Source: Candidatus Latescibacterota bacterium (GTDB lineage: Bacteria > Latescibacterota > UBA2968 > GCA-2709665). Taken from it: a stretch of 64,000 bases of DNA. Shown here piece by piece: positions 3,414 through 45,719 of this stretch. The DNA lies in contig OZ252100.1 of assembly GCA_965248435.1 (NCBI GenBank), positions 2,432,001-2,496,000 on the forward strand, given 5' to 3'. Numbering within the stretch: the stretch's first letter is position 1; each line of letters begins with the position of its first letter. The notes under the pieces are model-generated. The model saw only the letters and a program-made list of their open reading frames with translations. It made no database searches and was not told where the DNA came from. A program made the translations under genes and the position numbers.

Positions 3414-3499
3414 ACCGCAGACCACGGACCGCGGACCGCTCAAAACCAAAGAGATGGCTTTATTCATCTTGCCGTCCGCTGTCTGCCGTCTGCGGTCTG
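3414..3499. repeat. Heptamer tandem array (ACCGCRG) with an inverted partner array
   Basis: ACCGCAG ACCACGG ACCGCGG ACCGC, followed ~30 bp later by GCCGTCCGCTGTCTGCCGTCTGCGGTC. Confidence 0.6.
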
Positions 3500-3554
3500 T
3501 TTTGGCGGAGTCTGAGACGCTCTCGCGCAGGATATCGTTGATGGAAAACGATCT

Positions 3555-29379: not shown

Positions 29380-30201
29380 CTACGGTTTGGTGGGTTCCGG
29401 CGTTTCGGAAGCCTCCCGATCCTTGTAGGTGGAGTAGATGCGGTCGACGGTTCCGTCCTCTCGGAGCTCGTCGAGCACCTTCTGGAGGGGCTCGAGAATG
29501 CGTGGGTCGGTCTCTTTGTGGAAGGCGTATCCCATGTGTGATTTCTGCAGGACGTGGACCGACTCGAAATCCTCCGGATCCATTCCCGCCTCCATCATCT
29601 GAAACCTCGCGATATCTTCCGCGTAAGCGATCGCATCCAGCCGGCCAACCGCGAGCATCCGCACGAGATTGAGCGCTGACTTGTTTCGCGCGAGGGCCTT
29701 CTCGGGCACCCCGAGGGCGAGGACGAGCTGCTCGCCGATGTCGTCTCGAACCGTGCCGATACGGAGCCCGTTCAGGTCTGTCGGCTCAGAGATCTCGATC
29801 GCCTTCGATTTTGGACAGATCACGGAGACCCGCGTGGGGATGATCGGACCCACGAAACGGAACTGCTCGAGCCGCTCCGCCGTGTAGGTCATCGAAAACA
29901 GCGCGGTGCCGGGCCGCCCGAGGAGATACTGGTAAGCGCGCGGCCAGGGAAGAAGCTTCAAGTCCTCCCGCCCGAGGTTCACGCCCACCTTCACGAACAT
30001 CCTCATCAGGACGTCGACGGTAATCCCCTTCAATTTCCCGTCCGCCTCATCCTTGTAGTTGAACGGAGGATAGTGCTCCACCATCCAGCTTATCCCCTCG
30101 ATCTCACCCACCACGTCCGTGGGTGGCCCCGCTGAGACCTCGGAGTAGACGAGTATCAGAACGGTGATTGTGATCGATCTTCGCAACAAACGCCTTTCCA
30201 C
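29380..30201 (-). CDS. Family-3 substrate-binding protein
   Basis: EHYPPFNY, GITVD, PWPRA, GRLDAIAY motifs. Confidence 0.85.
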   Translation of the reverse strand: MERRLLRRSITITVLILVYSEVSAGPPTDVVGEIEGISWMVEHYPPFNYKDEADGKLKGITVDVLMRMFVKVGVNLGREDLKLLPWPRAYQYLLGRPGTALFSMTYTAERLEQFRFVGPIIPTRVSVICPKSKAIEISEPTDLNGLRIGTVRDDIGEQLVLALGVPEKALARNKSALNLVRMLAVGRLDAIAYAEDIARFQMMEAGMDPEDFESVHVLQKSHMGYAFHKETDPRILEPLQKVLDELREDGTVDRIYSTYKDREASETPEPTKP

Positions 30202-30345
30202 CGATCGGATGTGAGAATTTCAGCGTCTATTCGAAAACAGGCACAGATTGGATCCTTCTTCTCGGATTATGATAGACCATCCTCTGTCCGTTGTCAACCG
30301 ATCCCGGCCGTCACGCTCGCGCTTTGGCCCGATGTGGCCCTCTTC

Positions 30346-30434
30346 CAGCGCCAACGGCGCGTCCTCCCTTTACCCAGGGCAGCGCCCTCGGGCAGCGAAG
30401 TACATAACGCAGTACGGCCTGAAGGGCCGCGATA
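30346..30434 (+). repeat. ~90-bp triple-hairpin repeat, copy 1
   Basis: CAGCGCCAACGGCGCG...CCAGGGCAGCGCCCTCGG...CGGCCTGAAGGGCCGCGATA. Confidence 0.9.
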
Positions 30435-30492
30435 GGCGGATCCCCCGCTTCAAGCGTGCGGGGGGGGCAGGCACGGGCCATTCGGGCAATAT

Positions 30493-30906
30493 CTAGCTTT
30501 GCTCTGCGGGATCAATCACCGTGAGATCTTTGAAATAGTCGCGCAGGAACCCGCGATCCCGCGCGACGAGTCTATCGGCGTGAGTCTGAGCGTGAGCCCC
30601 TATGAGGAAATCCGTTACAACTCTGCCTTGCCTGCCTCCTCGATGGAGGTGTGCGGAGAAGAGCTCCCCCGCGAGGATTGCGCTTTCTGGTGAAGATGGC
30701 CTGAACTCGAGCTGCCAGTCCCTGAGAAACTCTTCAAAGACGGCTCTGGCACCAAAGGCTGGATAAATTTCCGCCAGAACGCACTCACATACCAGGAGCA
30801 GCCCCTCCGATAATGCGACGCGCAGAGCTTTTTCCGAGGCAATGGCGAAATCAGGATCGTCTGCAACGACGTCGAGGATCACCGAACTGTCTAGAGCTGA
30901 AATCAT
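30493..30906 (-). CDS. vapC: PIN/VapC toxin
   Basis: ALDSSV, E, DFLIGAHA, RDRGF. Confidence 0.88.
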   Translation of the reverse strand: MISALDSSVILDVVADDPDFAIASEKALRVALSEGLLLVCECVLAEIYPAFGARAVFEEFLRDWQLEFRPSSPESAILAGELFSAHLHRGGRQGRVVTDFLIGAHAQTHADRLVARDRGFLRDYFKDLTVIDPAEQS

Positions 30907-31124
30907 TCCCGTACAGCCCGTAGATAATCGTCTACCGCAAGTCCCTTCGGCAGTTTGCCTTGTCCACGCCACTTGTGAAAGACATCTTCGGATTGAACCT
31001 TCCGCGCCACCAGAACCCCTTCCACTGCTTCGAAATCCAGCACTGTGCCGGTTTTCAACCCAAGCTTTTCGCGGCAGGACTTGGGCACGGTTACCTGACC
31101 TTTGGACGAGAGTTTTGCCTTCAT
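30903..31124 (-). CDS. AbrB-family antitoxin
   Basis: SSKGQVTVPK..REKLGL; promoter TTGACA-N17-TACCTT upstream on the minus strand. Confidence 0.9.
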   Translation of the reverse strand: MKAKLSSKGQVTVPKSCREKLGLKTGTVLDFEAVEGVLVARKVQSEDVFHKWRGQGKLPKGLAVDDYLRAVRE

Positions 31125-31373
31125 ACCGGCTCCTTACTTTTTGTTTCCCACAGCGATTCCTACTTTAAAGGTAGGATTTCTTACTAATTTTGTCAAGGTC
31201 ATGCCCGGAACTAACAACACGTTGCCAGAACGAGAACTGGTCTGAACACAAGACAAGGGATGTGTAAGGGAGGGCCGTCTTATTCTCCAAAGCCCACTAG
31301 ATTGAGTAGATCAATCCCAGCCGAATCGGTCGATAGTAAAACCCCGGTAAAGCTCTTGCCAAACGGCTCGAAT

Positions 31374-31393
31374 GTTATTACTATAGTAATAAC
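31374..31393. promoter_or_regulatory. Perfect 20-bp palindromic operator overlapping the -10 of the AbrB-Doc promoter
   Basis: GTTATTACTATAGTAATAAC; TTGCCA-N17-TACTAT. Confidence 0.75.
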
Positions 31394-31413
31394 TCCACGG
31401 GAGGGTGCTCTTC

Positions 31414-31641
31414 ATGATTGAACTCAAGGTCCGCAAATTCGGCAACTCGCTCGGGGTCGTCCTGCCGAAGGAAGTCATCAACCGGCTGCGTACGAAAGAC
31501 GGGGAACCCTTGTACCTGATCGAAGGGCCGGACGGTGGCTACCAGCTTTCGCCCTACGATCCCGCTTTTGAAAAGAAGATGGCGAAGGCCGAAGACATTA
31601 TTGGCCGCTACCGCAACGCGCTGCATGCTTTGGCCAAGTGA
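31414..31641 (+). CDS. AbrB/MazE-family antitoxin
   Basis: RKFGNSLGVVLPKE, YRNAL.ALAK. Confidence 0.9.
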   Translation: MIELKVRKFGNSLGVVLPKEVINRLRTKDGEPLYLIEGPDGGYQLSPYDPAFEKKMAKAEDIIGRYRNALHALAK

Positions 31642-32030
31642 ACGAACCGGTCTGGATCGAGAAGCAAGACGCGCTGCTGCTGCACGACCGCCTGATGGCT
31701 CTGCACGGCGGCGCGGCGGGCTTACGTGAGGAAGGCTTGCTGCAATCCGCCCTGGCGCGGCCGCGGCAGTCTTACGCTTATACGGAAAAACCGGACACCA
31801 TCGACATGGCGACTGCCTACACGGCGGGTATCCTCGACAACCATCCTTTTTTTGTTGACGGCAACAAGCGCACTGGCTTTTTGGTCGGCGTCCTGTTTCT
31901 GGAGTTGAACGGGTGTCGCTTCACCGCCACAGAAGAGGACGCGGCTCAGGCCGTTCTGGAACTGGCAGCCGGTGCACTCGATGAAGCGGGCTACACGGCT
32001 TTCCTTCGAGCGAACACCAAAGCGGAATGA
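31638..32030 (+). CDS. doc: Doc/Fic family toxin with a one-residue insertion in the catalytic motif
   Basis: HGG..G.R..GLLQSALARP; HPFFVDGNKR. Confidence 0.9.
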   Translation: MNEPVWIEKQDALLLHDRLMALHGGAAGLREEGLLQSALARPRQSYAYTEKPDTIDMATAYTAGILDNHPFFVDGNKRTGFLVGVLFLELNGCRFTATEEDAAQAVLELAAGALDEAGYTAFLRANTKAE

Positions 32031-32425
32031 GCTTGCCCGGCAAAATGATGCTTGTCCCCTGCGCCGCGGTCATGAGCGACAAACTCCTCCGCAAACACTG
32101 ATGGTGATCGGGAAGGATGAGTCGGTTCGCGGTTCAACCAAAGAAGCCCGGTCCCTTACTCCTTGGGATCGGGCTTTCTATATCGAGGATCTAAGAAAGA
32201 TGCCTGCCCGGGTTACCTGGTCAAGGACTTGACGGCTTCAATGACATGGCCTCAAGTCTGCGGATCTACTGGGGGCCGAAGTGAACGGCAGGGCAACTTA
32301 TTGAGTATACGATCACGCAACACGAGAATGGTCGAACTGGCTTGGCGAAAACTTCCTTAAGCGGTACACTGCTGATTGCCAACCGTCTTTAGGTTGCGAA
32401 CGACGATCGACGAACGACGGCCTTT

Positions 32426-32513
32426 CAGCGCCACGGCGCGTCATCCATTTACCGAGGGCAACGCCCTCGGGTCGCGAAGTACGTAGCGGCGTGCGGCCTG
32501 AAGGGCCGCGATA
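32426..32513 (+). repeat. ~90-bp triple-hairpin repeat, copy 2
   Basis: Same three hairpins; preceded by GAACGAC GATCGAC GAACGAC; followed by the transposase remnant. Confidence 0.9.
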
Positions 32514-32526
32514 ACTTCATATCGCC

Positions 32527-32570
32527 ATGCCTCAATCCCTGTCCCGCACACTGATTCATCTTGTGTTCCG
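32527..32570 (+). pseudogene. N-terminal remnant of an IS200/RAYT (Y1 HUH) transposase
   Basis: MPQSLSRTLIHLVF matches the characteristic MPQSL....HL.FST start of this TnpA group; homology is lost afterwards and there is no HUH motif. Confidence 0.6.
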
Positions 32571-32854
32571 GATCCCCTACCCATCGCGGACCGTTGGCCC
32601 GATGATGCATCGCCTCATAGAAGCTCGCTTTCGGCCAAAAACCTGGAAGATTGAAAATGTGAATGACCTGACGCGTGGGTGCAGACCGCGAAAAGCACGG
32701 CTCCCTGGCTTGAACCGTGCCCCAGCTTAAAGCATACCGGGACACGCCCAGCCTAAACCTTGCCAGCTTGTTTATTGGAACGAATCGCGCTATATTATCG
32801 TAACACCCTTGATTCACTGGCGTTATGCTGGACGGATGGATCGTGGAGTGATTT

Positions 32855-33082
32855 ATGGCGGATTGGCAGAATTGCGATGCGGTTGAGCGCGACTCGAAAA
32901 AGGTGAGCGGGGCCTGGATATTTCGAGGAACACGGGTCCCCGTATCCGCGCTTTTCGAGAATCTCAAAGATGGCGCGTCGATTGAGCAGTTTCTCGAATG
33001 GTTCCCTGGCATAGAACGATCGCAGGTAGAAACCGTGCTCGATCACGAAGTGAAGGCGCTAGCAGATTCAGTTGATACGTGA
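32855..33082 (+). CDS. DUF433 family antitoxin
   Basis: SGAWIFRGTRVPV..LFENL..G.....FLEWFP. Confidence 0.9.
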   Translation: MADWQNCDAVERDSKKVSGAWIFRGTRVPVSALFENLKDGASIEQFLEWFPGIERSQVETVLDHEVKALADSVDT

Positions 33083-33396
33083 GGATTCTATTTGATCAGG
33101 GCACTCCCGTTCCTCTTCGACGATACCTTGCCGATCACTCCGTCGATACGGCCTTTGAGCGAGGATGGTTCAACCTGCAAAATAGCGAATTGATTGCGGC
33201 AAGCGAGAAGGATGGATATCAACTCTTGATCTCTACAGACCAAAGCCTCCGATATCAACAGAATCTGTCCGATAGACAGCTCGCGATCATCGTTCTTCTT
33301 TCAGCTTCGTGGCCACGCATCCAACCGCGAGTTGATGACATCCGAACGGCTGTGGACAAGATTGTTCCGGGTGATTACAAAGAGGTATCGATCTGA
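33079..33396 (+). CDS. DUF5615 / VapC45-like PIN toxin
   Basis: RILFDQGTP, STDQ.LRYQQN. Confidence 0.85.
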   Translation: MRILFDQGTPVPLRRYLADHSVDTAFERGWFNLQNSELIAASEKDGYQLLISTDQSLRYQQNLSDRQLAIIVLLSASWPRIQPRVDDIRTAVDKIVPGDYKEVSI

Positions 33397-33561
33397 GACA
33401 TTGCCCTCTGTGAACGTGGTCTCTCCACTGGCTTGAACAGGGTTCTTTTGTCCCGCTGGATGACTCCTCCGGCGGGATTTCTGTACGTGTTTTGCTCAAT
33501 CAGAAATGACTTTTTCGATTCGGCACGGCTGTGAACGAACCTAGTAGACGGTTCCGAATGG

Positions 33562-33957
33562 TCAGGCGATCACATCAACCCCATAACGCGCGAAGACGGC
33601 GTCGCCGGTTACGACGGGTAGGCTGTGGGTTTCAGCCGTGGCGATCAGGATCCGGTCGACAGGGTCGGCATGGATCGCGGGGAGCTCCGTGGCGCGCACC
33701 GCGGCGGCCAGGTCGACGGGAAGTTCCCGGAGGTCGTGGTGTTCCAGGATGGTGGCAAGCCACTCTGCCGGACGCGACGGTAGAGTGAGTTTGCCCTTGG
33801 CGACTTTGATCCCGATCTCAAATCCGGAGATCGCGGAGACGTAGACAACCGGTGCGTCGTCTATTCGGGTCAAGGCGTCCTGAGACAGCTGTCCGCCTCC
33901 CTGGCCCAGCCACAGGATCGCACAGGTATCGAGAAGCACGACCCTACCCCTCCGCAT
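33562..33957 (-). CDS. vapC: PIN/VapC toxin
   Basis: LLDTC, SAIS.FEI, H.DP.DRILIA.A, VTGD. Confidence 0.92.
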   Translation of the reverse strand: MRRGRVVLLDTCAILWLGQGGGQLSQDALTRIDDAPVVYVSAISGFEIGIKVAKGKLTLPSRPAEWLATILEHHDLRELPVDLAAAVRATELPAIHADPVDRILIATAETHSLPVVTGDAVFARYGVDVIA

Positions 33958-34183
33958 CTTCAGAAGGCCACTCGGCCGGACTCATTGGTTCGGTCGGATC
34001 GTAGTTGACGACTGCCTCCTTCGCAAGGGGGTGCGGATCGAGTCGGGTCCGCTTGCGGTACGGAACGAGACTGGCAACCGGCTTGCGGTGTCGGCAGATG
34101 ACGACCTCATCGCCGGTGCGCTCGATTCCCGCAAGGAGGGCGGACAGCTGGGTTTTGGCCTCGTGCACGCTCACGAGTTTCAC
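33944..34183 (-). CDS. Phd/YefM antitoxin
   Basis: VHEAKTQLS, VVICR..KPVA; promoter TTGACA-N17-TAAGTT upstream. Confidence 0.9.
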   Translation of the reverse strand: MKLVSVHEAKTQLSALLAGIERTGDEVVICRHRKPVASLVPYRKRTRLDPHPLAKEAVVNYDPTEPMSPAEWPSEDAEG

Positions 34184-34331
34184 GGAATCCTCCAATGAAG
34201 TTAGGGTATCGATTTGATCTATTAAACTTAGTCTGATTAGTCATAATTGTCAAGGGGGAGGGTCCGAGCACCGGCACGGCCCGACGACAATCAGAATCCG
34301 GGGACAATGAATCGCACCCAGCGAGGGAAGC

Positions 34332-34586
34332 GTGGGCAACTATCGACCGCAGTCAGCAGATACGACGGAAGCCGTCGATCGCCTGATGTTCGAGGCTTAC
34401 GGACGGATGTCCGCGGACGAGAAGCTGCGCCGGGTCAGGGACCTCAACCGCACCTGCAAGATGCTTTGTCTGCAAGGCCTCCGGGAGAGGTACCCCGATG
34501 CGGATGAGACCGAATTGAGTGCTCGCTGGGCGGCAACGTTTCTCGACGAAAAGATCGTCTCCGCCCTGTTCGGATGGTCCCCATAA
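34332..34586 (+). CDS. Small helical protein paired with a nucleotidyltransferase
   Basis: DT..........MS..EK.............G.R..YP pattern typical of NTase partner proteins. Confidence 0.65.
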   Translation: MGNYRPQSADTTEAVDRLMFEAYGRMSADEKLRRVRDLNRTCKMLCLQGLRERYPDADETELSARWAATFLDEKIVSALFGWSP

Positions 34587-34590
34587 ACCG

Positions 34591-35127
34591 ATGAATCAGC
34601 CCGATCCGATAAAGGTCATAAACGATGTTGGCCGGATTCTCTCCGATTTGGGAATCCGGTTCTTCGTAAGTGGGTCTATCGCGAGCTCTCTGTATGGCGA
34701 ACCCAGGTCCACGAACGATATCGACATTGTCGCGGACCTGGACGAGGAAGATGTAAGGAGAGCGATCGAACGATCGTCTTCGTTCAACATCGTCCACAAT
34801 GAAACGGTCCAGAAAGTCGACATCTTCGTGGCCGGACGCGATCCACATACCATCCGGGAGCTCGGAAGGACACACCTGATGACTCTGCAGGACGGGTCGT
34901 CCATTCCGCTGGCCTCTCGAGAGGATCTGATTTTTCAGAAACTGGTGCGGTACGAGAAGGGAGACCGCGTCTCCGATCGACAGTGGCGGGATGTTCTTGG
35001 GCTGCTGAAGGGTTCGGAACCTGACGTCCACTACTTGAAAGACTGGGCGGAGCAGCTCGGCGTCGCAGATCTACTCAGCGAGGCATTCGTAGAATCCGAT
35101 CTGAGTGATCCCGGTGATGAGCGATAA
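34591..35127 (+). CDS. Pol-beta-like nucleotidyltransferase (AbiEii/DUF6036-like), possibly internally shortened
   Basis: GSIASSLYGEPRSTNDID, KVDIF, EDLI..KL, SDRQWRDV. Confidence 0.8.
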   Translation: MNQPDPIKVINDVGRILSDLGIRFFVSGSIASSLYGEPRSTNDIDIVADLDEEDVRRAIERSSSFNIVHNETVQKVDIFVAGRDPHTIRELGRTHLMTLQDGSSIPLASREDLIFQKLVRYEKGDRVSDRQWRDVLGLLKGSEPDVHYLKDWAEQLGVADLLSEAFVESDLSDPGDER

Positions 35128-35147
35128 TTGACGCGATCCTGTTCTTC

Positions 35148-35237
35148 CAGCGCCAACGGCGCGTCCTCCCTTTACCGAGGGCAGCGCCCTCGGGTGCGCG
35201 AAGTACATAACGCAGTGCGGCCTGAAGGGCCGCGATA
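35148..35237 (+). repeat. ~90-bp triple-hairpin repeat, copy 3
   Basis: Near-identical to copy 1, including the preceding TCTTC. Confidence 0.9.
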
Positions 35238-35407
35238 TGACCCACCCCGCCCAGCCAGTCGCACGCCTTTCTTGAGGCACCTCCGCCCCAGGCGAACGGG
35301 CACCCCTCCCAGGAGGGGACTTGGCCAGGCGGCTCGTGAAGTGGGTCAATTGCGAATTGCGGATTTGGGATTGCGGAGGCGGTGAATTAGCCGAACTTGC
35401 GGAGTGC

Positions 35408-35851
35408 TCAGTCCAGGTTAGATGGCTGGTCTGCAGGATCGATGCGTTGGATGCCCGGGACGGAGTCGAAATGGGTGTCTACAGTGATGATGCGAGTGAT
35501 GCCGTGGCCCGACATGACAGAGCAGTGAACGGCGTCTCGCACCGGGAGGTCGGGATGATCCTCGAGGAGGCGGCAGGTGCCTCGCATGTCAGCACCGGTG
35601 ACGGACAGCAGATCGGGGAACAGGTCCATTACATCGGCTGCGAGACGGAGTCCTTCGACCCTGAGGTTCCGGCGGGAGAGAACGTAGAGCAGTTCCTGGA
35701 CGACTTCGATGCTGGTCACCGCGTCGAGGTCTCCGTCTCCGATACGGGTGAGGATGTCGCCACAAGGAACTTTGAGGCGATGTTCGCTACCGGCAGCGTA
35801 GAGGAAGATGTTGGTGTCGATGAAGACGCGAGTATCAGCGGACGCCGGCAT
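35408..35851 (-). CDS. vapC: PIN/VapC toxin
   Basis: FIDTNIFLYA.G, EV.QE, RDAVH, T.D.HFD. Confidence 0.92.
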   Translation of the reverse strand: MPASADTRVFIDTNIFLYAAGSEHRLKVPCGDILTRIGDGDLDAVTSIEVVQELLYVLSRRNLRVEGLRLAADVMDLFPDLLSVTGADMRGTCRLLEDHPDLPVRDAVHCSVMSGHGITRIITVDTHFDSVPGIQRIDPADQPSNLD

Positions 35852-36077
35852 CGTGCGCCTCCTCGGCCTCCCGGTCGATATCCTGCCAGTCGACGACAGG
35901 AAGATTCATGATGCCGGCTGCAGCTTCGGCTTTCCGGGGCGGCACCTTCAGGTAGCGCTCACGGACGGCATCACGCACCAACTCGGCGACGGATACCCCT
36001 TCGCGTGCGGCCCGGATTTCGAGCTGCCGGTATTCGGCGGGTTCCATAAGAATCTGGGCGCGTTTGGTTCTAGCCAT
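35835..36077 (-). CDS. CopG/RHH antitoxin
   Basis: RAQIL....Y..L...A...G.SVAELVRDAV; RBS AAGGAG. Confidence 0.85.
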   Translation of the reverse strand: MARTKRAQILMEPAEYRQLEIRAAREGVSVAELVRDAVRERYLKVPPRKAEAAAGIMNLPVVDWQDIDREAEEAHDAGVR

Positions 36078-36188
36078 AGACGACATCTCCTTAGTATGTG
36101 CATAAGTATACATATATACGGCTTCTTTGGCAACCCGAAACCCTGACGGGGCCAAGTTGCGAACGACGATCGACGAACGACGGCCTTT

Positions 36189-36280
36189 CAGCGCCAACGG
36201 CGCGTCATCCCTTTACCGAGGGCAGCGCCCCCTCGGGTCGCGAAGTACATAAACGCAGTGCGGCCTGAAGGGCCGCGATA
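36189..36280 (+). repeat. ~90-bp triple-hairpin repeat, copy 4
   Basis: Shares the upstream GTTGCGAACGACGATCGACGAACGACGGCCTTT and the downstream ATCGCC.TGCC with copy 2. Confidence 0.9.
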
Positions 36281-36380
36281 ACTTTGCATCGCCCTGCCCG
36301 TCAGCCAACCCCCAGAGAATGATGCAAATTCAGCGATAATCTCGCCCCCAAGGCAGCAGATCCTCCGATGCACTGCAGCC

Positions 36381-36409
36381 TTGACACGAATACCGTTATC
36401 CGTTATAGT
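36381..36409 (+). promoter_or_regulatory. Sigma70 promoter giving a leaderless higB mRNA
   Basis: TTGACA-N17-TATAGT-N7-GTG. Confidence 0.75.
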
Positions 36410-36416
36410 ATGATAC

Positions 36417-36710
36417 GTGATAAATTCCTTTCGCGACAAGGCCACGGAAGATATCTTTGACGGTCGGGATACACGCGTTGCGCGTTCGGCGTGTCCGTCG
36501 TCCTTGTGGCCGGTTGCCCGGCGCAAGCTGGATCAGATCAATCGTGTCCGCGACGCGAACCACCTCTCGATACCCCCGGGAAACCGGCTCGAGCGACTGC
36601 GCGGGGACCGACGGGGTCAATACAGCATCCGAATCAACGACCAGTACCGTATCTGTTTCCATTGGGAGGAGGGTCATGCCTTCGATGTCGAAATCACGGA
36701 CTACCACTAA
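36417..36710 (+). CDS. higB: HigB toxin
   Basis: MI.SF.DK.TE, PPGNRLE.L.GDR.GQYSIRINDQYR.CF, TDYH. Confidence 0.93.
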   Translation: MINSFRDKATEDIFDGRDTRVARSACPSSLWPVARRKLDQINRVRDANHLSIPPGNRLERLRGDRRGQYSIRINDQYRICFHWEEGHAFDVEITDYH

Positions 36711-37038
36711 GGGGCGGGCTCGGCTCGCTGAGCGTCGGCTGCCGACCGACCGCCCACCGACGCACCCAGGAGAGATGCTTCGCGCCGAGTTCCTTGAACC
36801 CCTGGGGATTACACAGACCGCCTTCGCCGCTCGACTGGGCGTGTCCTTTCCCCGGCTCAACGAGATCATCAAGGGGCGCCGTTCGGTAACGCCCGACACG
36901 GCACTGCGACTTGCTCGCGTCCTTGGCATGCCCGCTGATTTTTGGCTCGGCCTGCAGAGCGACTGGGATCTCTGGCAGGCGATGCAAAGTGACAGTGCCG
37001 CCGACATCGAGCAGCTGACCCCTCTCGAGCTGCCTTAG
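36676..37038 (+). CDS. higA: HigA antitoxin
   Basis: RPPTHPGEML, GVSFPRLNEII.G.R.VTPDTALRL; start placed after GGAGGAGG inside higB. Confidence 0.88.
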   Translation: MPSMSKSRTTTKGRARLAERRLPTDRPPTHPGEMLRAEFLEPLGITQTAFAARLGVSFPRLNEIIKGRRSVTPDTALRLARVLGMPADFWLGLQSDWDLWQAMQSDSAADIEQLTPLELP

Positions 37039-37126
37039 CGCCAACGGTGCGTCATCCCTTTACCGAGGGCAGCGCCCCCTCGGGTCACGAAGTTCATAAC
37101 GTGGTGCGGCCTGAAGGGCCGCGATA
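37037..37126 (+). repeat. ~90-bp triple-hairpin repeat, copy 5
   Basis: Overlaps the higA stop; followed at 37144-37170 by a degenerate copy of the transposase 5' end. Confidence 0.9.
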
Positions 37127-37275
37127 AACTCAGACCGCCCACCGCAATCCCTGTCCCCGCATCTGATTCAACCGATCTTGTGCAGACGCGAAAAGCCCGG
37201 CTCCCTTCTGAGGGGGCCGGGCTTAATGTAGCTTGTGCGTGAGCAATCACGATCAATCAAGTTTTACGCTTGACC

Positions 37276-37674
37276 TCAATTCAGGACATCCCAGAGTCGG
37301 AGACCTGGGACCTTCTTAAAATGTTCATCGAAGGTGGCGATCACGGATCCGGTTTCGATGGCCTGGGCGGCAATCCAGACATCGTTCATCGGGATAGGAC
37401 TACCGGCCCGCTTAAGCGTATCCTTAACCTGGCCGAACACCTCGGCCGTTTCCCCACCGATCGGGAGCACACGAACCGTGGGCTTCTGAAGGAAGCGGGA
37501 AAGTTGAGCTCGGTTCTCCCGAAACTTGCTCCCACTTCTGAAGCCTGCGAAAAGCTCGCCCATCACGATCGCCGAGAGGTAGACGGTTTCCGCATCACCC
37601 AGCACGTTGAGAACGCGTTCGTCGCCGCTCAGGAACCGTGCATATGCGTTCGTGTCCAGAAGGATGGACTTCAT
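37276..37674 (-). CDS. vapC: PIN/VapC toxin
   Basis: LLDTNAY, GEL, PIP.NDVWIAA, TFD.HF. Confidence 0.93.
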   Translation of the reverse strand: MKSILLDTNAYARFLSGDERVLNVLGDAETVYLSAIVMGELFAGFRSGSKFRENRAQLSRFLQKPTVRVLPIGGETAEVFGQVKDTLKRAGSPIPMNDVWIAAQAIETGSVIATFDEHFKKVPGLRLWDVLN

Positions 37675-37925
37675 TTCCAGTCCTCGGGATCGACGGTTTC
37701 AAAGTCTCCGGTCGCACGACCGAACGCTTCGAGATCCACCTGGGACCAGGACCCAAAAAGATCCTGAAAATCCAGCTTGCGATCAGGCGGCTGCTCAACC
37801 AAACCGAGAGCCTCTCTCAGTAACCGCTTGATCGTCTTGTTCAGGCTCTGGCCAGCCGAATCAGCCTTGCTCCGGATCTTGTCGTCCAGAGAATCATCCA
37901 GCCCGTGAATCGTAATGGATTTCAT
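37671..37925 (-). CDS. FitA-like RHH antitoxin
   Basis: ITIHGLD, G.SLN; promoter TTGACA-N17-TATATT with three TGAACTAT direct repeats. Confidence 0.85.
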   Translation of the reverse strand: MKSITIHGLDDSLDDKIRSKADSAGQSLNKTIKRLLREALGLVEQPPDRKLDFQDLFGSWSQVDLEAFGRATGDFETVDPEDWK

Positions 37926-38026
37926 TGACCTATCCTTATAGTTCATATTTCTATTCAGAATAGTTCAAAATATAGTTCATATTAGTCCCTTTGTCAAGGC
38001 TGCTTTTTCAAGGATTTGCACCTTCA

Positions 38027-38058
38027 ACCCAATTTTCCACGCGCGTGGAAAATTGGGT
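38027..38058. repeat. Perfect 32-bp palindrome
   Basis: ACCCAATTTTCCACGCGCGTGGAAAATTGGGT. Confidence 0.85.
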
Positions 38059-38092
38059 GAGAGCCTTCGAGCCAGCGCGAAACAAGTCAGGA

Positions 38093-41000
38093 CTACTTGA
38101 GCAGGAGCATCTTGTGGATCTGCTGGAAGCCTTCCGCCGCCATCCGGGTGAGGTAGATCCCGCTCGCAACCGGTCGGTTCTGTGCATCCAACCCGCCCCA
38201 GCGCAGGACGTAGTACCCGGCCAGGTGGTCCTCATCGACGAGCGTGGCGACCTCTTGACCGAGGATGTTATACACGCGGATGGAGACGCGACCCGCCTCC
38301 GGGACGGCATACTGGATCGTCGTCTCGGGGTTGAAGGGGTTGGGGAAGTTGGGCTCCAGTGCGAACTCGTCCGGGACGAGAGAGAGCCTGGCGCCAAGGT
38401 TCTGAGCGGCGTTCACTCCCAGCTTGTCGTCGATCAGGAGGCCTTCCACGATCTCGATCAGGCCTCCTCTGGGATTACCATCCAGGATCTCGAAGTGGAG
38501 CCGCGCCGCGATCCCATCCCCTGCGACGGGCGAGCCCTGTGTCATCGCGCTTGCGACTAGGACCTCGCCCTCCTCCGAGACGTGTCTGAGCACTCCGAAG
38601 ATCTCAGCGAGACGCCCATCCTGTTTGAGGATGCCCTGCCCGCCGTCCGTCGCCGAGATGAACTTGAGGTGATCCGGGTCGTACTTCACAGTCACTCCAT
38701 ACCCCTTCAGGTTGTGGGTATTCGAAACCGTGATGTCGGCGATGAACTCCTTACTCTGCGTAGAGGATGAAGGCCTTCTGACGAGCTGCAGTTTGGTGTC
38801 GACGTCTATGCCGTAGGTTTTTACCACGGCCACCGGTTTCGTGCCGCTCTCACCTTTGACGTACTGTTTGTCGAAGAGCCCTATTAAGGCAAGAAAGTCG
38901 AAGAACCCGACCGCACCATCTCCGGTCAGATCGGCGGCCAGGTCGAATCCGGAGTCGCCTGGAGACTTTTCGAAGGCACCCACGAAGCCCAGAAAGTCGA
39001 AGAAGCCGACCTTAAAGTCACCGTCCAGGTCACCGGGAAATTCGGCCGCAGTCGCGTCGACGGTAATCTGGCCCTCCAGGAAGGCACTTTCGAACGTCCC
39101 GTCGCCGGCCTTGACCCGGTAGTAGTAGGTGGTGCCGTCCTCCAGGGTCCTGTCCACGGTCCACGCGGTCACACCGGCTGGATCGCCCGATCCGGTGCCT
39201 GCCCCGGCCGAGAGTCCGGCTTCGAGGGAAAGGGCATCCGAGTAGTCGCTGGACGAGGCCAGGTGGAACGTGTAGGACAATCCACTTCCGGAGCTGTTGT
39301 TGATCACGATCGTCGGGCTGAGTGGGTCACCCTGGATCAGCGCAAGCGTCGGGGTATCCAGACCCTTGTCGACCGCCGGAGTCACGACGTCCGAAGCAAG
39401 GGAGGGATCGCCCGAAAGCTGCTGGGCTGCGAGGGAGCGGATCTGGTAGCTGTAGGACACGTCGTTATCGACGTTGTTGTCCACATAGCTCGTGGCCACG
39501 CCGAGGGTGGCGATGGGACTGAAACTCCCGTCTCCGGCTTCCCGTTCCACGATGTAGCCGACGACGCCCGAAGAGGCACTCGCCTCCCACGCCAGGCTGA
39601 CGATTCCGCTTCCCTCTGTCGCTGTGGGCTGATCAGGGGGATCCGGCGCAGGAACTGCACCCGCCGCGAACGTTTTAAAGGCAGTGACTGTGCCTTCGGA
39701 AGGAGGGTTCCCGGCACGATCGACCGACTCCACCTGGAAGGAGTAGTCTGTGTCAGGCGTCAGGTTGGTCAGGATGAGGACGTGGCTCGTGACGTCCGAG
39801 GCGTCCCCGACGTTGAAGTCGAGAGATCCGCCCGCAGCGCCGAACAACACCGCGCTGTCGGAGACCTCGTCGGTGTCCCACGTGATCGTGGCCGTGCTGT
39901 CGCCAGGCGTGGCGACGACGTTGCTGATGACGGGCGAGGTGACGTCGGGATCGGCGTCGGTCTGGAACGAGAGGATATCACTGCTCACGGGACCGTTGTT
40001 GCTCTGATCCTTGGAGGACACCCGGTAATAGTAGAGCTGATCCGCGTCCAGGTTCGTGAGCGTGATGGTATGTGCCGTGTTGAAGTCGGGATCGTTTCGT
40101 ATCTGGTCGAGGCTCTCCTCGGACGTTCCGAAGGCGACCTCTGCGTCGGCGGCCTCGCTCGTCTCCCAGCCGATCGTAGCCTGTCGGTCATTCTTGTAGA
40201 TCACACTCGCGTCCACCGAGATGACTGGCGCGGAGATGTCTATGTCTGACGGCGTACTGCCGAAGGCGACCTTGCTCAGCGTAGCCCCGTTTCCAGAGAC
40301 ATCCGTGGCCCCGGCCTGATAGGCGTAGGTGGTTCCAGCGGTCAGTTTTGTGAGCACAACCCGGTGTGTCGTCACGTTGTCGCCGGAGATCTCCGAATCG
40401 CCGAGGTCGTCCTCCGAGTCCCCAAAACTGAGCTGGCTGTTGCTGTTCTCGTCCGTGCCCCACTCGATCGTCAGACTCGACGTCGTAGAGGCCACGACCT
40501 TCGGGGCCGCAGTAATCACAGGGAACTGCGTGTCCGGATCGGTGTCGGTCGTGAAGCTCCCGAACCCTCCCGGGACCTGGAGCTTGGTGAGGGGATCGGT
40601 GCTGGTGACCTCCAGCCCGGCCGCGTTCGTCGACGTGACCTGGAAGACATACTGCTGCCCAGGAGTCAACCCCGTGACCTCCACGCTGTGATCCGTCGCG
40701 AGTTCATCTGTGTTTTCCACGACAATCTGAGAGGCTTCCCCGAACACCGGAACGTCACCCTGCAGGGCCAGTTTCGAAGCGGGGAGCGCGCCGACTTCGG
40801 CCAGAGAGGTGGCGTCCTGATCGGTCCTGAATCTGATGATGACGAAGTCGTCCTTGATGTCCACGACCGGGCCTTCGATGATCGACGGCGCCACGGCTGC
40901 CGCCGCAGGTCGCGTGCGGAAGGTGTGATCAAAGCTCAGCCCCAGGATCCCCCCGGCGGGATCTGTCTTGACTACGTTCCCAACGTTGTCCGCGGATTCG

Positions 41001-44000
41001 ACCCCGAAGTGATATTCCGTATCCTCAGTCAGGTCGGTCAGGGCGATGGAGCAAACGATCCCGCTCGTGGCCTCCTCGATGGTGCTCGTGTACTCGCCGG
41101 TGGCGCCAAACTCCGCGTCTGTTGCCCAGCTGATCCGACAGTCAGACAGCTCGTTCAGGAGCCATTTCACCCTGGCCGATTCCGAGGTGATGTTCCGGAC
41201 GACCGGGCCTTTCACGATCACCGGGGCCTCGTCGTCAACATCGTCAGCCGCCCGTGTCGTGAACACCATCAGGGCGTGTTCACTCAGGCTCGTGTTGCCG
41301 AACGGATCGGTCATCCGGACCTTGAAGCGGTAAGTCGTTCCAGGCTCCAGATTGCCCACGCTCACGCCCCTTCTCTTCCGGAGCCTGGCGCCTTCCACGA
41401 CAATGGAATCGTCGTTGGCCTGTTTCGCGCCGCCGCCAATTGCCTCTTTATTGAGGATGACTTCCGCGGAGTGGACCTCGTTGGCTCTCCAAATGATGAT
41501 GACCGAGTTGTTGGTGATGCCGACGGGGATGGGATGTCCGAAGACCCGCGGCCCCTCGGCGTCTGGCTCTGTGCGTGTGACGAAGGAGAGTTGGCCCGTG
41601 TTCGTCGTGGGTCCGTTGCCTGCGAAGTCTGTCGCCTTGATCTTGTAGAAATATTCTGTGCCTGAAGTCAGACCCGTAAGGAAGAAGGTGTGTAGACGCC
41701 TGGGATCGGTCGTCGACTCCAGGATGCCCACCGTGCCTGTGTCGTCTTCATAGACATCGGGGGTCGTTGCATACTGGATGTCCATCGTGGTGGGCTCGTT
41801 CGCCTTCGCGAAGATTTTAGCCTCGGTGTCGCTGATAAACAGCACACCGGGCGGTCGCACGAATATCGGGGGAACGTCGTCCTCGACCGACGTGGTAACG
41901 ATCGTGAAAGGGGGTGAAACCACAGCGTTTCCGCTCACGTCTGCGGACCGGACCCTGACGTAGAGCGTGGTGTCGACCGGAAGGTTGGCCAGGGAGATCT
42001 GGTGGAGGCGCACTGCTTCGTCGACGGTGACCGAATCGATCCCCGCTTCATCTTCGTCCTCGTCTTCGTCCTGTAAAATAGCTTTGGTGAGTACGTCGAC
42101 GGTCAGCGCATCGATTGCGTCTTTGTCCAGACTGTAGAAGATGGCACTGTTGCTCCGCCTGCTGGTTCGCCATTGGACGTTGGCCCGGTCGAAGGAAGAA
42201 AACGAAGAAGGCCTTCCAAGGACTTCAAGGGGGCGGGTATCGACAGCATCCAACGTTCTGAAGCTGAGCACAGTCGATTCGAACGCGTTGTTGTTCAGGT
42301 CCGTTACCGTGACCCTGTAGAAAACCTCCTCGCCGGGGTTTAGACCAGAGACGACGACCTCGTGAGACTTGGTGGGGTCGGCCGGACCTGCAGCGGAGGT
42401 GTCCAGGGCGTCCGCGGCGGCCCCATAGGCGATCTGAGAGGTCGCGGCCTCATCCAGCTCGAATCCTATTCTAACTTCTGTTTGAGTTCTTCCAAGGAGT
42501 CCCGGGCCCTCCAGAATGCGCGGAGGCCGGGTGTCCTGATTCTTCGTGACGAAAAGGGCCGTAGTGGACGGGTAGAAATCGGATTCGCCCTGGGCGCTCA
42601 GCGATTTGGCCTGGAAGAAGTAACGCGTTCCGGGTGTGAGGCCTTCGATCACGAGCCGGAAGCGCGTCATCTCATCGACCAACTCTACGCTCCTGTCCAG
42701 GTTGTTGGGGTCTTCACTGTAAACGACCGTGACGATCCCGGGTTTGTCGAATTCGCCTGTAATCACCGCCCGGGTATCTGTAACGGCCTCGGCCGCGGGA
42801 CGCACAGTAGCCACCGGGACATCGGTGACCCAGGAGTCGATCACCAGGGTTACATCGGGGAAAATGGTTTCAGACGCGAGGACATCGGCGGGATCGGTGA
42901 AGGTGACCTCTGAGAAGGTGATCTGCGTCCCCCGGAACTGGTCTCGGGCCAAAAACCATATCGACCCGGCCAGCGCGTTCGCCGGAGGCACCTGGCTGGC
43001 GCTTTCGGGGACCGTCAGCCTCAGCCTGATCGTGGTTTGATCCACGTTTTCAATCGCAGTGCCCCGTCGGTTGACGACCAGGCGGACGTTGGGGGTAACG
43101 ACCTCTTCGGAACCGTCCTGGAAGGAGAATTTCACGCTGGTCAGCGTAATCGTGAAGGTGCGAAATTCGTCCTTGAGCAAAAGGTCCAGGGATCCGACCC
43201 GTTTCAAGACATTCAGCGGCTCGCCCTCATCGAATGCGGATACGGTCCCCTGGTCAAACACGATCTCTTTCGTGTTCAGCTGCCAGGATACAGGGTTGGG
43301 CGGAAAATCATAGCCCTGTCCCTTCTCGCCTGTGACATCTGCAAGCGCGAAACGCTTGTCGAGGGCGAACGTGAACGTCAGACCGACCGTATTGGAGAAC
43401 CCCGTTGCGTCCAGTCCTATGCGGACGGTCTGGCCGCCGCCGCCCCTGGCTTCCACTTCTTTCGTAGCAGAAGGCAGAAAGCTTACCGATGCGCGACTTT
43501 CATCGGAAACGGGGGCCGCTGGAAGTTCTGGAACTACGACCCGGAAAGGGGCCCGGGGGAAAAACAGGGTGTACCCTCCCAGGATCTGTTCGCGGTCCAA
43601 CTGCGCCTGAATCTCAATCTCGGTCGCCTCGGTAATCCCTCCGAGAAAGATGTGCGCCCCGATCCTCGCACCCGGGTTCACCCTGCGCTGGTGCACGCTG
43701 TCGTTTATCAGAGAACCCCTCTTCAGGTCCGCGTCAAACGCCTTGGGGATATTCCCAGGACTGAAGATTACAAACGGGATGTTGAGAGGAATCGTCGTTT
43801 CCGAGCCGTCCTGAAAACTCAGGACGACGTCGTTCAGGGACACCGCGAGGGAGGTGAAGGCGGACAAACGGAGATGCACTAATCCGGCAAGCTTTAGCGC
43901 CCCGGTGTTATCCTCGTCGAACACACTTTCGGTGCTCTCATTGAATGTGAAGTTCTCAGAGCCATCCCAGGTAACGGGGTTTGGCGGGGAGTCGTAGCCG

Positions 44001-44284
44001 AGTTGTCTTTCGCCGGTTATCTCAGTGACAGCCCCGGCATCGCTCATCGTAAAGTTCGCCGTGAGCCCTACCGTATTGGAAAGGCCAGTCGCAAAGATCT
44101 CGAACGTCACATTGTCGCCGGCGTTCGCGACGATCGACCTCGTCTGGGATTGCGCCCCGTCTCCCTGGAGCTGGATGTCTGCGTCCGCATCTGGATCCTG
44201 AGCAAGTGAGCTACCGCACGTAACTCCGAACAGGGAAACAGATACGACAAAAGTGGCCAACCTGAGCCTGGAGATGAATTTCAT
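38093..44284 (-). CDS. Large secreted protein: duplicated cohesin-like modules, Fn3 repeats, dockerin-like EF-hand pair, cohesin, FlgD/T9SS-like C-terminal domain
   Basis: Signal peptide; repeated W.T.E.....V.YG / L..L.P.T.Y.Y; DLDGDFKVGFFDF and DLTGDGAVGFFDF; NFPNPFNPET...ASGIY...KMLLLK. Confidence 0.85.
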   Translation of the reverse strand: MKFISRLRLATFVVSVSLFGVTCGSSLAQDPDADADIQLQGDGAQSQTRSIVANAGDNVTFEIFATGLSNTVGLTANFTMSDAGAVTEITGERQLGYDSPPNPVTWDGSENFTFNESTESVFDEDNTGALKLAGLVHLRLSAFTSLAVSLNDVVLSFQDGSETTIPLNIPFVIFSPGNIPKAFDADLKRGSLINDSVHQRRVNPGARIGAHIFLGGITEATEIEIQAQLDREQILGGYTLFFPRAPFRVVVPELPAAPVSDESRASVSFLPSATKEVEARGGGGQTVRIGLDATGFSNTVGLTFTFALDKRFALADVTGEKGQGYDFPPNPVSWQLNTKEIVFDQGTVSAFDEGEPLNVLKRVGSLDLLLKDEFRTFTITLTSVKFSFQDGSEEVVTPNVRLVVNRRGTAIENVDQTTIRLRLTVPESASQVPPANALAGSIWFLARDQFRGTQITFSEVTFTDPADVLASETIFPDVTLVIDSWVTDVPVATVRPAAEAVTDTRAVITGEFDKPGIVTVVYSEDPNNLDRSVELVDEMTRFRLVIEGLTPGTRYFFQAKSLSAQGESDFYPSTTALFVTKNQDTRPPRILEGPGLLGRTQTEVRIGFELDEAATSQIAYGAAADALDTSAAGPADPTKSHEVVVSGLNPGEEVFYRVTVTDLNNNAFESTVLSFRTLDAVDTRPLEVLGRPSSFSSFDRANVQWRTSRRSNSAIFYSLDKDAIDALTVDVLTKAILQDEDEDEDEAGIDSVTVDEAVRLHQISLANLPVDTTLYVRVRSADVSGNAVVSPPFTIVTTSVEDDVPPIFVRPPGVLFISDTEAKIFAKANEPTTMDIQYATTPDVYEDDTGTVGILESTTDPRRLHTFFLTGLTSGTEYFYKIKATDFAGNGPTTNTGQLSFVTRTEPDAEGPRVFGHPIPVGITNNSVIIIWRANEVHSAEVILNKEAIGGGAKQANDDSIVVEGARLRKRRGVSVGNLEPGTTYRFKVRMTDPFGNTSLSEHALMVFTTRAADDVDDEAPVIVKGPVVRNITSESARVKWLLNELSDCRISWATDAEFGATGEYTSTIEEATSGIVCSIALTDLTEDTEYHFGVESADNVGNVVKTDPAGGILGLSFDHTFRTRPAAAAVAPSIIEGPVVDIKDDFVIIRFRTDQDATSLAEVGALPASKLALQGDVPVFGEASQIVVENTDELATDHSVEVTGLTPGQQYVFQVTSTNAAGLEVTSTDPLTKLQVPGGFGSFTTDTDPDTQFPVITAAPKVVASTTSSLTIEWGTDENSNSQLSFGDSEDDLGDSEISGDNVTTHRVVLTKLTAGTTYAYQAGATDVSGNGATLSKVAFGSTPSDIDISAPVISVDASVIYKNDRQATIGWETSEAADAEVAFGTSEESLDQIRNDPDFNTAHTITLTNLDADQLYYYRVSSKDQSNNGPVSSDILSFQTDADPDVTSPVISNVVATPGDSTATITWDTDEVSDSAVLFGAAGGSLDFNVGDASDVTSHVLILTNLTPDTDYSFQVESVDRAGNPPSEGTVTAFKTFAAGAVPAPDPPDQPTATEGSGIVSLAWEASASSGVVGYIVEREAGDGSFSPIATLGVATSYVDNNVDNDVSYSYQIRSLAAQQLSGDPSLASDVVTPAVDKGLDTPTLALIQGDPLSPTIVINNSSGSGLSYTFHLASSSDYSDALSLEAGLSAGAGTGSGDPAGVTAWTVDRTLEDGTTYYYRVKAGDGTFESAFLEGQITVDATAAEFPGDLDGDFKVGFFDFLGFVGAFEKSPGDSGFDLAADLTGDGAVGFFDFLALIGLFDKQYVKGESGTKPVAVVKTYGIDVDTKLQLVRRPSSSTQSKEFIADITVSNTHNLKGYGVTVKYDPDHLKFISATDGGQGILKQDGRLAEIFGVLRHVSEEGEVLVASAMTQGSPVAGDGIAARLHFEILDGNPRGGLIEIVEGLLIDDKLGVNAAQNLGARLSLVPDEFALEPNFPNPFNPETTIQYAVPEAGRVSIRVYNILGQEVATLVDEDHLAGYYVLRWGGLDAQNRPVASGIYLTRMAAEGFQQIHKMLLLK

Positions 44285-44441
44285 AGCGATGTGGCCAGGA
44301 GAGTCCATCGGTTCACTCCGTGAAACGTTGACCATCAATTTCTGGCATTGTAATCACTTCTCTGACAATATACACGATGTCTTGTCTTCACGAACCCAAT
44401 TTAGGTAACCCCATTCAACCGTTCAGTCGATCGAAAATGAA

Positions 44442-45680: not shown

Positions 45681-45719
45681 CGCGATTCCTCCTTTCAGAC
45701 GAGATACGAAATACGAGAT

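Follow-up and report, generated by a model that had tools for sequence, protein, structure and literature searches.

In insertion sequences (ISs) of the IS608 type the hairpins at the two ends lie on the same strand, and in integrons the attC site forms one long imperfect hairpin (R''-L''/L'-R'). Closer to the system reported here are the repetitive extragenic palindromic (REP) sequences and the REP-associated tyrosine transposases (RAYTs). The REPtron concept, as outlined for TnpA-REP and the bacterial interspersed mosaic elements (BIMEs; PMC3333891), couples a small Y1 HUH transposase gene to extragenic repeats. RAYTs have been sorted into groups, and the same account describes in outline a 'RAYT-like IS200 Group 3', a group of the IS200 clade without duplicates and with abundant flanking 16-mers (Bertels et al. 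2017; PMC5581495). Here we analyse a repeat of about 95 nt and three hairpins, hereafter the head, in a 64,000-nt stretch of DNA from a Candidatus Latescibacterota bacterium (the window: positions 2,432,001–2,496,000 of contig OZ252100.1; genome, 5.67 Mb). Five heads lie there in an island of toxin-antitoxin (TA) modules, which an earlier note on the sequence took for an integron-like cassette array built by HUH-transposase strand transfer at the hairpins. We conclude that the five heads are probably orphan REP-like elements, left by an extinct and horizontally acquired REPtron-like unit in an ordinary TA accretion island. For this window the reading of an 'integron without integrase' gives way to a more conservative, testable one.

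The head repeat and its transposase

All five heads lie on the + strand, at window positions 30346–30434, 32426–32515, 35148–35237, 36189–36285 and 37037–37130, and in pairwise comparison they are 90–95% identical. Five repeats of about 90 bp, on one strand and between modules, are thus confirmed, and the statement of the earlier note that no copy exists elsewhere in the window holds for the genome: four methods recovered only these five in 5.67 Mb. BLAST returned 5 copies; nhmmer returned the five plus two chance matches (E 3.1 and 6.1) with a model made from the window copies, and the five plus one match at E 0.75 with a cross-phylum model. A covariance model (R1) scored the five at 79–89 bits, the next best hit being the opposite strand of copy 2 (17.8 bits, E 0.16). 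If the five placements are taken as independent and random, the other four heads would share one 7.6-kb stretch of the 5.67 Mb with a probability of about 3e-12. The clustering of all five in the island is far beyond chance, while their shared orientation is by itself weak evidence (1/16).

The copies differ in what surrounds the three hairpins. Copy 2 belongs to a longer unit of about 235–265 nt (32393–32658, +), the only full one in the island, which consists of a 33-nt left extension, the head, a 14-codon relic of a Y1 gene and a tail. In the tail is a hairpin of the GGACC-GTT-GGCCC type, similar to a degenerate inverted head, and a search of the island for further tails found none besides this one. 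Copies 1, 3, 4 and 5 are heads without the full unit. Head 1, three hairpins only, is flanked on one side by the 3' end of the AbrB-PIN operon and on the other by a solute-binding-protein (SBP) gene. Head 3 begins 21 nt past the stop of a nucleotidyltransferase-like gene, between the convergent modules 5 and 6. Head 4 (36156–36298 with its surroundings) sits between the divergent promoters of the RHH-VapC (ribbon-helix-helix antitoxin) and HigBA modules; it is accompanied by a decayed trace around the transposase start and by the 33-nt left extension, which is 100% identical in copies 2 and 4 and has a sharp left edge. Head 5 (37037–37170 with its surroundings) begins at the HigA stop codon and is followed at 37142–37170 by a decayed trace of the transposase start, 79% identical to 32530–32558.

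The open reading frame (ORF) that contains the relic starts at 32527, 11 nt past the end of copy 2; it begins MPQSLSRTLIHLVF and then loses all similarity. It has no Pfam match of its own, and it is recognised as the relic of a transposase solely because it was compared with intact genes elsewhere. What is left amounts to 14 codons (32527–32568), among which are neither the HUH motif nor the catalytic tyrosine. The succession of head and ATG-CCT-CAA-TCC-CTG (MPQSL...) seen at copy 2 recurs, followed by the same tail, in units of G058, a Candidatus Latescibacterota metagenome-assembled genome (MAG) of the same class as this genome and of another family.

Intact genes were reached from the head itself. 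An exact-pattern scan of one genome per species (185,579 species) found the head in two records only, the Latescibacterota MAG just named (12 stretches) and one contig of a Verrucomicrobiales MAG. On the latter (locus L082) a head at 3007–3095 (+) ends 11 nt before an intact 150-aa Y1 gene (3107–3559), an inverted head (3654–3562, −) follows 3 nt after the stop, and another +/− pair of heads lies upstream. The protein scores 81.2 bits against Pfam Y1_Tnp (cut-off 23) and 58.7 bits against NCBIfam NF033573 (IS200/IS605; cut-off 55), and shows HVH in EDHVHLLF and a C-terminal tyrosine in VAYIRNQ; among solved structures its sole sequence relative is 2fyx, a 'transposase, putative' (E 1e-4).

A protein search with this transposase yielded at least 533 loci related to it, distributed over Verrucomicrobiota, Acidobacteriota, Planctomycetota and further phyla, and locus statistics were taken from the best 80 of them. 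At least one head is present at 73 of the 80. A + head lies within 150 nt upstream of the gene at 58 and a − head within 150 nt downstream at 59, with both at 48; the opposite orientations were found at 9 loci (upstream) and 19 loci (downstream). Model R1 counted 304 heads in the 80 loci, often in alternating clusters of 10–20, and up to 20 in a single 5.4-kb transposase locus. In five genomes, three of them single chromosomes and two in several contigs, the MPQSL gene occurs in 1–3 copies (at least 52% identity) together with divergent paralogues at 29–45%. The transposases of two MAGs, one from Verrucomicrobiales and one from Deltaproteobacteria, share 88% identity. Several intact MPQSL units stand inside type I restriction-modification loci (L082, 264–2685; L104 and L110), adjoining HsdS and a YhcG/DUF1016 nuclease gene.

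These loci bear out the tie that the earlier note had drawn between the repeat and an HUH transposase remnant, since intact MPQSL Y1 genes carry the same element directly upstream. An intact MPQSL-type tnpA behind the same leader, which the note had proposed to look for, exists in other phyla; no intact cognate was found in this genome, where the 14-codon relic is all that was recovered. The genome does carry, outside the window, two intact 138-aa Y1 genes (MSKAHT...) at contig positions 2292534–2292875 (L006) and 3762381–3762722 (L007). They belong to another subfamily, 30% identical to the MPQSL type, and each is bracketed by inverted two-hairpin repeats (CAGCGTGGAAAT..ATTTCCACGCTG; AGTCCGG..CCGGACT), the first motif of which is present at about 18 places in the genome. 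They have the appearance of a second REPtron-like system that is still alive.

The MPQSL loci agree with the REPtron arrangement in several respects. A small Y1 HUH gene is bracketed by inverted, hairpin-forming extragenic repeats; further heads occur in clusters and, in G058, dispersed over 47 sites; the gene is kept at low copy number alongside divergent paralogues; and non-autonomous units that join a head to a degenerate inverted partner recall the REP doublets known as REPINs. They differ in the repeat, since a REP is one palindrome of about 35 nt, whereas the head, at about 95 nt, has three distinct hairpins with conserved loops and is recognisable by sequence across phyla. They differ also in the enzyme, which scores as an IS200/IS605-type protein and for which no solved RAYT was detected by sequence. 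This genome departs furthest: unlike a REPtron, it has a dead gene and five co-oriented orphan heads in one island, with no inverted flanking, and where the repeat is dispersed over 47 sites in G058, here its 5 copies lie in one 7-kb stretch.

With the IS200/IS605 family and its derivatives, the palindrome-associated transposable elements (PATEs) among miniature inverted-repeat transposable elements (MITEs), the MPQSL system shares a Y1_Tnp protein with HUH motif and tyrosine, structured subterminal hairpins, and deletion derivatives that keep the ends and the first tnpA codons (the G058 units and window copy 2). In contrast to IS608-type elements, the repeats flanking the MPQSL gene are inverted and the gene lacks many identical copies. 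The many near-identical full copies and same-strand ends expected of an IS200/IS605 insertion sequence were looked for and not seen, copy number being low and the flanks inverted. Compared by description only, and as far as the published outline goes, the profile of 'RAYT-like IS200 Group 3' fits the MPQSL family (PMC5581495). The head family, a composite three-hairpin REP-like unit around IS200-like MPQSL transposases, conserved and covarying across phyla, looks new. With this layout the REP/RAYT (REPtron) concept reaches far outside Proteobacteria, as a composite whose sequence is unusually conserved, and R1 offers a means of annotating these elements, orphan remnants included, in MAGs.

Structure and history of the heads

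The three hairpins that the earlier note described for each repeat fold as single-stranded DNA in 5/5 window copies (z-scores −1.3 to −3.5), and covariation across the family supports them. A weaker fourth stem (GCG...CGC vs CACG...CGTG) shows one compensatory change between copies. Covariation was scored over 19 pairs in 67 aligned heads, taken from this genome, G058, the related genome G042 and 37 other loci. Paired cells make up 96.3% of the total, and in 11 of the 19 pairs both sides have changed, in 124 cells; shuffled alignments give 32 ± 4 such cells, and none of 500 attains 124. When the 3' partner was slid by 1–3 columns as a control, pairing fell to 24–47%. Kinship among the aligned heads inflates the covariation counts; structural constraint is nevertheless indicated, because without it neither the 29 further distinct pair types nor the slid controls are readily accounted for. 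The loops AAC, AAC and TGAAG, the 3' border CGCGATA(A) and a (C/T)AG border are conserved. By analogy with IS608 and TnpA-REP, the constraint may reflect recognition of single-stranded DNA by the transposase, and a role of the structure at the RNA level may also be involved. An Rfam scan of 29500–38500 (E ≤ 5) returned no matching family, so that the head has no Rfam entry; mir-320, on a palindrome at 38025–38058, and sR32 were set aside as chance matches.

One hairpin carries information on the history of the five copies. In hairpin 2 the pair CCGAGGG/CCCTCGG is present in 4/5 window heads, where heads elsewhere have CCCAGGG/CCCTGGG, and head 1 shows a one-sided change (CCCAGGGC / GCCCTCGG) which is the intermediate between the two. 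The derived, compensated pair together with its intermediate indicates that the copies multiplied within this lineage while pairing still mattered.

Relatives provide a second source of information. Among 60 relatives searched by BLAST, G058 contains the repeat, and weak matches came from G042 and G038. G058 contains 47 heads, 16 forward and 31 reverse (24-nt pattern, up to 3 mismatches; the reversed-pattern control gave 0), in mixed orientation in the first half of its large contig and mostly reverse in the second. Its unit of about 235 nt comprises a head, a decayed MPQSLSRILIHL start in which most copies have ATC for ATG, a deletion junction, and a tail whose GGNCC-GTT-GGCCC hairpins resemble a degenerate inverted head. 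At one locus (L049) about 52 transposase codons are kept between head and tail. Heads and tails also form co-oriented tandem arrays with a period of 260–380 nt and no genes in between. The same genome has a classical IS200-type tnpA of 148 aa (MGLRRTSHAVYDSQYHLVW...; L050, L060 and others), present in about 14 near-identical copies without the head repeat; this IS200 being unrelated to the head, an active IS200 and fossil MPQSL-type MITEs coexist there.

In the class as a whole the distribution is patchy. Heads were found in 7 of 132 genomes, this one included, and in 1 of 21 genomes of the same family, and none was found in the same-genus genome. For G042 and G038, 15–16 head matches were listed among 29 candidates scored per genome. 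The patchy distribution, the up to 88% identity of transposases across phyla and the local derived pair together suggest that the unit arrived horizontally, that heads then spread locally, and that the gene died.

On this basis the following course of events may be proposed. In its intact form the unit would have been a 150-aa MPQSL Y1 gene bracketed by a head before the start codon and an inverted head after the stop, with further heads clustered nearby, and its enzyme, by analogy with IS608 TnpA and E. coli TnpA-REP, would have recognised the hairpins as single-stranded DNA. The lineage would most likely have gained such a unit horizontally; the heads would then have multiplied locally, and the gene would afterwards have decayed to the 14-codon relic at 32527, leaving five orphan heads. 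The setting would be a typical TA accretion island, gene-poor and recombination-tolerant, that collects selfish modules. Because the heads lie in a stretch where such modules pile up, heads and modules can be regarded as co-tenants and not as one machine. The heads are probably inert today; at most, the two operons whose ends directly adjoin a head may use it as a REP-style 3' hairpin.

Several observations weigh against this account. All five heads of the genome lie in one TA island, each exactly between modules, a striking arrangement which the account has to treat as historical accident plus local spread, and the local spread of the copies is itself something that we infer. Clusters near intact genes alternate in orientation, whereas the five heads here are co-oriented; in this they match the G058 arrays, yet only copy 2 keeps a tail. 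Strict membership among the RAYTs is unproven, because the protein passed the IS200/IS605 model and no solved RAYT was detected. Finally, defence or TA genes adjoin some intact loci, and a head and a module are missing together from a relative; both are taken up below.

Heads and toxin-antitoxin modules

If the heads were part of a machine for moving TA modules, then heads elsewhere should keep similar company. In six regions of G058 the 33 proteins encoded beside or between heads include TsaD, UbiA, LDH, an ABC-F ATPase, aminotransferases, response regulators, an IS1595 transposase and similar proteins, and 0 of the 33 gave a match to TA-module Pfam families; the TA modules of the island have no match in G058 DNA. 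In tblastn searches the 16 TA proteins of the island matched at 3 of the 80 transposase loci, at 1 of 32 G058 loci and at 0 of 17 head loci in five other genomes of the class. A Pfam scan covering 110 of the 203 small ORFs that flank the 80 transposase loci did find defence or TA genes beside some intact loci, namely RES-Xre (L101), PIN and TIR (L117), ThsB-TIR (L129) and HsdS (L104 and L110, besides L082 above); housekeeping genes, those for TIM and SecG for example, were likewise among the ORFs scanned. Like many mobile elements, the MPQSL system is thus found at times in variable regions rich in defence or TA genes, with no rule to it. In these counts TA genes are rare near the repeat. Outside this genome the repeat is in fact spread through intergenic DNA in both orientations and without a TA link, as the 47 heads of G058 attest, a pattern that the earlier note had itself named as speaking against its array.

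A second expectation concerns breakpoints, which under the proposal of the earlier note should coincide with the repeat in relatives. When 14 kb of DNA were compared with 31 genomes, matches were confined to two modules (DUF433 and HigBA) and to parts of the flanking genes, and the same-genus genome gave none; of 5 relatives searched for the flanking SBP protein, 4 yielded no match (E ≤ 1e-20). Homology of the HigBA module starts at 36379 (G042) or 36380 (a relative sequenced in X5, a run of another study that has 18% of the sampled words). This is the −35 box, about 85 nt to the right of head 4. Homology of the DUF433 module in other genera starts at 32768–32844, at least 110 nt from the tail of the copy-2 unit.

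Run X5 also provided the only insertion or deletion seen. In one 857-nt contig (depth 2) position 32104 is connected to 33562 through 139 other letters, so that on this single low-depth contig the relative keeps Doc and VapC2 and is without head 2 and the DUF433 module. The breakpoints lie about 290 nt to the left of the copy-2 unit and at the VapC2 stop, with head 2 inside the variable segment. The difference shows modular turnover, with joint gain or loss of a head and a module, and at least one head and one module were accordingly gained or lost as a single segment, which is the last of the points that weigh against treating them as mere neighbours. X5 gave no cover at 29800–30083, 33208–33491 and 34344–34911, which at a contig depth of 2–5 is no proof of absence. 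Joints with one short side (20–43 nt; e.g., 35195 to 36252, 33845 to 35856 and 35378 to 38035) were rejected as artefacts of repeats or paralogues or as the DNA of other organisms, and joints from 32615/32617 to 36185 as tail-to-head junctions of other, G058-like organisms in the sample.

It is possible, if unlikely, that the heads act as portable homology without any transposase chemistry, either through RecA exchange of TA segments between heads or through arrival of the whole island en bloc from a repeat-rich donor. Identity of 90–95% over about 95 nt would suit such exchange, and the 33-nt flank common to copies 2 and 4 has the look of recombination or duplication. The GC content (0.55–0.57 in the island vs 0.59–0.62 in the flanks), a neighbourhood not conserved even within the genus, and the different module content of the X5 relative fit as well. 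Yet no donor came to light: the head variant specific to the window has no other occurrence among the 185,579 species genomes or in metagenome contigs (the single match of the metagenome scan is a 24-nt chance match on an unrelated contig), the repeat-rich G058 has no DNA match to the TA modules, and the sole indel is not bounded by heads.

Alternatively, the heads may have been kept for a new use, as transcript-end hairpins or as insulators between TA operons, much as REP elements stabilise or attenuate E. coli mRNAs. Heads 1, 3 and 5 do lie at the 3' ends of operons, head 3 just past the stop of a + strand operon and head 5 at the stop codon of another, and in this lineage a second change re-established the pairing of hairpin 2. 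We consider this quite unlikely all the same: none of the heads yielded a call for a T-run terminator or a promoter, head 4 is flanked by divergent promoters instead of marking a 3' end, and the compensatory change may date from the time of an active transposase.

The array proposed in the earlier note would have the co-oriented heads serve as recombination sites, a Y1 transposase excising and inserting circles of head plus TA module by single-strand cleavage and strand transfer, in the manner of an integron but without IntI or attC. Such a mechanism is chemically plausible. Y1 enzymes of the IS608 type use same-strand end hairpins and form circular intermediates. In the island all five genomic heads lie between modules on one strand, and the segments 35243–36188 and 36285–37036 each contain exactly one module; tandem arrays such as those of G058 are what re-insertion of a circle next to a head should produce, and the joint loss of head 2 and the DUF433 module would fit too. 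TnpA-REP, moreover, cleaves and recombines BIMEs in vitro, as the published outline has it (PMC3333891). The geometry tells against it, however, for there are five heads for eight modules, with none at junctions 1|2, 3|4 and 4|5 (3 of 7) or at the right edge. Module homology borders stand 85–110 nt from the heads, the X5 indel does not run from head to head, and no TA association was seen in G058, near intact genes or in genomes of the class. Intact systems, furthermore, have inverted and not direct flanking heads, co-oriented local clusters are usual for the family even without intervening genes, and of a cognate transposase this genome yielded the relic alone. With association, geometry and breakpoints all failing to support it, and no positive evidence found for the mechanism, we regard a cassette array of this kind as quite improbable.

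A more specific version is less probable still. Here an MPQSL transposase, acting in cis in the past or in trans, would cut two same-strand heads at one position, free a single-stranded circle of head plus cargo and re-insert it beside another head; on that reading the G058 arrays and the TA array would both be products of one reaction. The joint gain or loss of head 2 and a module hints at mobility of this kind, though its breakpoints do not fit. If true, it would be a new mode, an HUH-driven single-strand analogue of integron cassette shuffling.

Co-oriented similar repeats among small TA cassettes, often bearing promoters, do recall sedentary chromosomal integrons, and like their TA arrays the island has structured repeats that separate small TA operons with promoters of their own. 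It differs from them in lacking an IntI match above cut-off, attC architecture and a rule of one repeat per cassette, and in having a repeat that belongs to another enzyme family. That the heads are attC sites of a degraded chromosomal integron without integrase (a cluster of attC sites lacking integron integrases, CALIN) is effectively refuted by the IntI search (TIGR02249: 21 partial matches, the best at 104 bits vs a cut-off of 265, none near the island) and by the hairpin architecture, three separate short perfect hairpins with conserved loops and no GTTRRRY core visible at the edges, in an element that elsewhere flanks Y1 transposase genes.

Orphan REP-like elements in an accretion island thus remain the reading that we prefer. 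A limited literature search, covering titles and the beginnings of abstracts, found no link of REP/RAYT elements to TA cassette arrays, which is not proof of absence.

The island and its surroundings

The island is bounded by the gene for the periplasmic SBP (29380–30201, −) and by a gene for a 2081-aa surface protein (38093–44338, −). Between them are eight small two-gene modules and no housekeeping gene; the paired, closely packed modules listed in the earlier note are borne out by the ORFs and Pfam. Module 1 (30493–31124, −) pairs a MazE/AbrB-like antitoxin with a PIN toxin and module 2 (31405–32030, +) a MazE/AbrB-like antitoxin with a Fic/Doc toxin. Module 3 (32855–33396, +) encodes a DUF433 protein and a 105-aa partner. 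Module 4 (33562–34195, −) consists of a Phd/YefM antitoxin and a PIN (VapC-like) toxin, module 5 (34332–35127, +) of an 84-aa protein and a 202-aa nucleotidyltransferase-like protein, and module 6 (35408–36110, −) of an RHH antitoxin and a PIN toxin; the start of this antitoxin is uncertain, as a long ORF to 36197 runs into head 4. Module 7 (36417–37038, +) combines a HigB-like toxin with an HTH_3 (HigA-like) antitoxin behind a promoter-like site at 36381–36409, and module 8 (37276–37946, −) a FitA-like RHH antitoxin with a PIN toxin behind a promoter-like site at 37997–37969.

Most of the family names given in the earlier note stand. In 6 of the 8 modules Pfam recognises both partners (E ≤ 0.01), two antitoxin matches, the FitA-like RHH of module 8 and the Phd of module 4, falling just under the Pfam cut-offs. 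The label 'DUF5615' for the 105-aa partner in module 3, which has no Pfam or NCBIfam match, was not confirmed; the 202-aa protein of module 5 has only sub-threshold matches to AbiEii/DUF6036 nucleotidyltransferases, and its 84-aa partner has none. Judged from sequence, the eight pairs fit the type II TA pattern, with both partners recognised in six and one or a weak partner in two, and toxicity and neutralisation are predicted. The module 3 stretch is matched in 15 other genomes of two families at 67–88% DNA identity, mainly in the DUF433 part (8 of the 15 span most of the module), and the head repeat is absent from all 15. By itself the TA island is unremarkable; the useful result is the identity of the repeat that punctuates it.

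That most modules have a promoter of their own is partly upheld. A simple sigma-70 scan of the island gave 7 sites against 2.9 ± 1.7 expected, while good sites precede only 4 of the 8 modules (AbrB2-Doc, RHH-VapC, HigBA and FitA-VapC). From extremes of GC skew near 3.0 and 0.22 Mb, the + strand of the island is the C-rich strand.

Other repeats lie in or near the island. The spacer that follows head 3 (35243–35400) contains short G/T-rich iterations (AATTGCGAATTGCGGATTTGGGATTGCGG), and contig depth in the source sample reaches 271 in the bin 35196–35479, vs about 35–40 in most neighbouring bins; the spacer therefore probably contains another repeat, common to other organisms in the sample. At the right edge is a near-perfect palindrome of 34 nt (38025–38058; AACCCAATTTTCCACGC|GCGTGGAAAATTGGGTG) with three genomic copies. 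The other two stand within an extension of about 1.1 kb that adjoins 2 of the 6 copies of a 2.5-kb element encoding a 314-aa tyrosine recombinase. In the X5 relative the palindrome stretch (38009–38083) is swapped for 187 other letters.

The 3' 3.8 kb of the surface-protein gene (window 38081–41884) has an 88% identical paralogous copy at contig positions 3006819–3010619, and the tail of the protein resembles a C-terminal sorting domain of the type IX secretion system (T9SS). Farther to the right, from about 45707–46000 onward, is the end of a high-copy element, probably an insertion sequence, of which about 290 nt recur at 98–99% identity in at least 35 further positions of the genome; a second copy in the window lies near 51335–51615, and an ORF for an rve/HTH_38 (IS30-like) transposase occupies 51350–52333.

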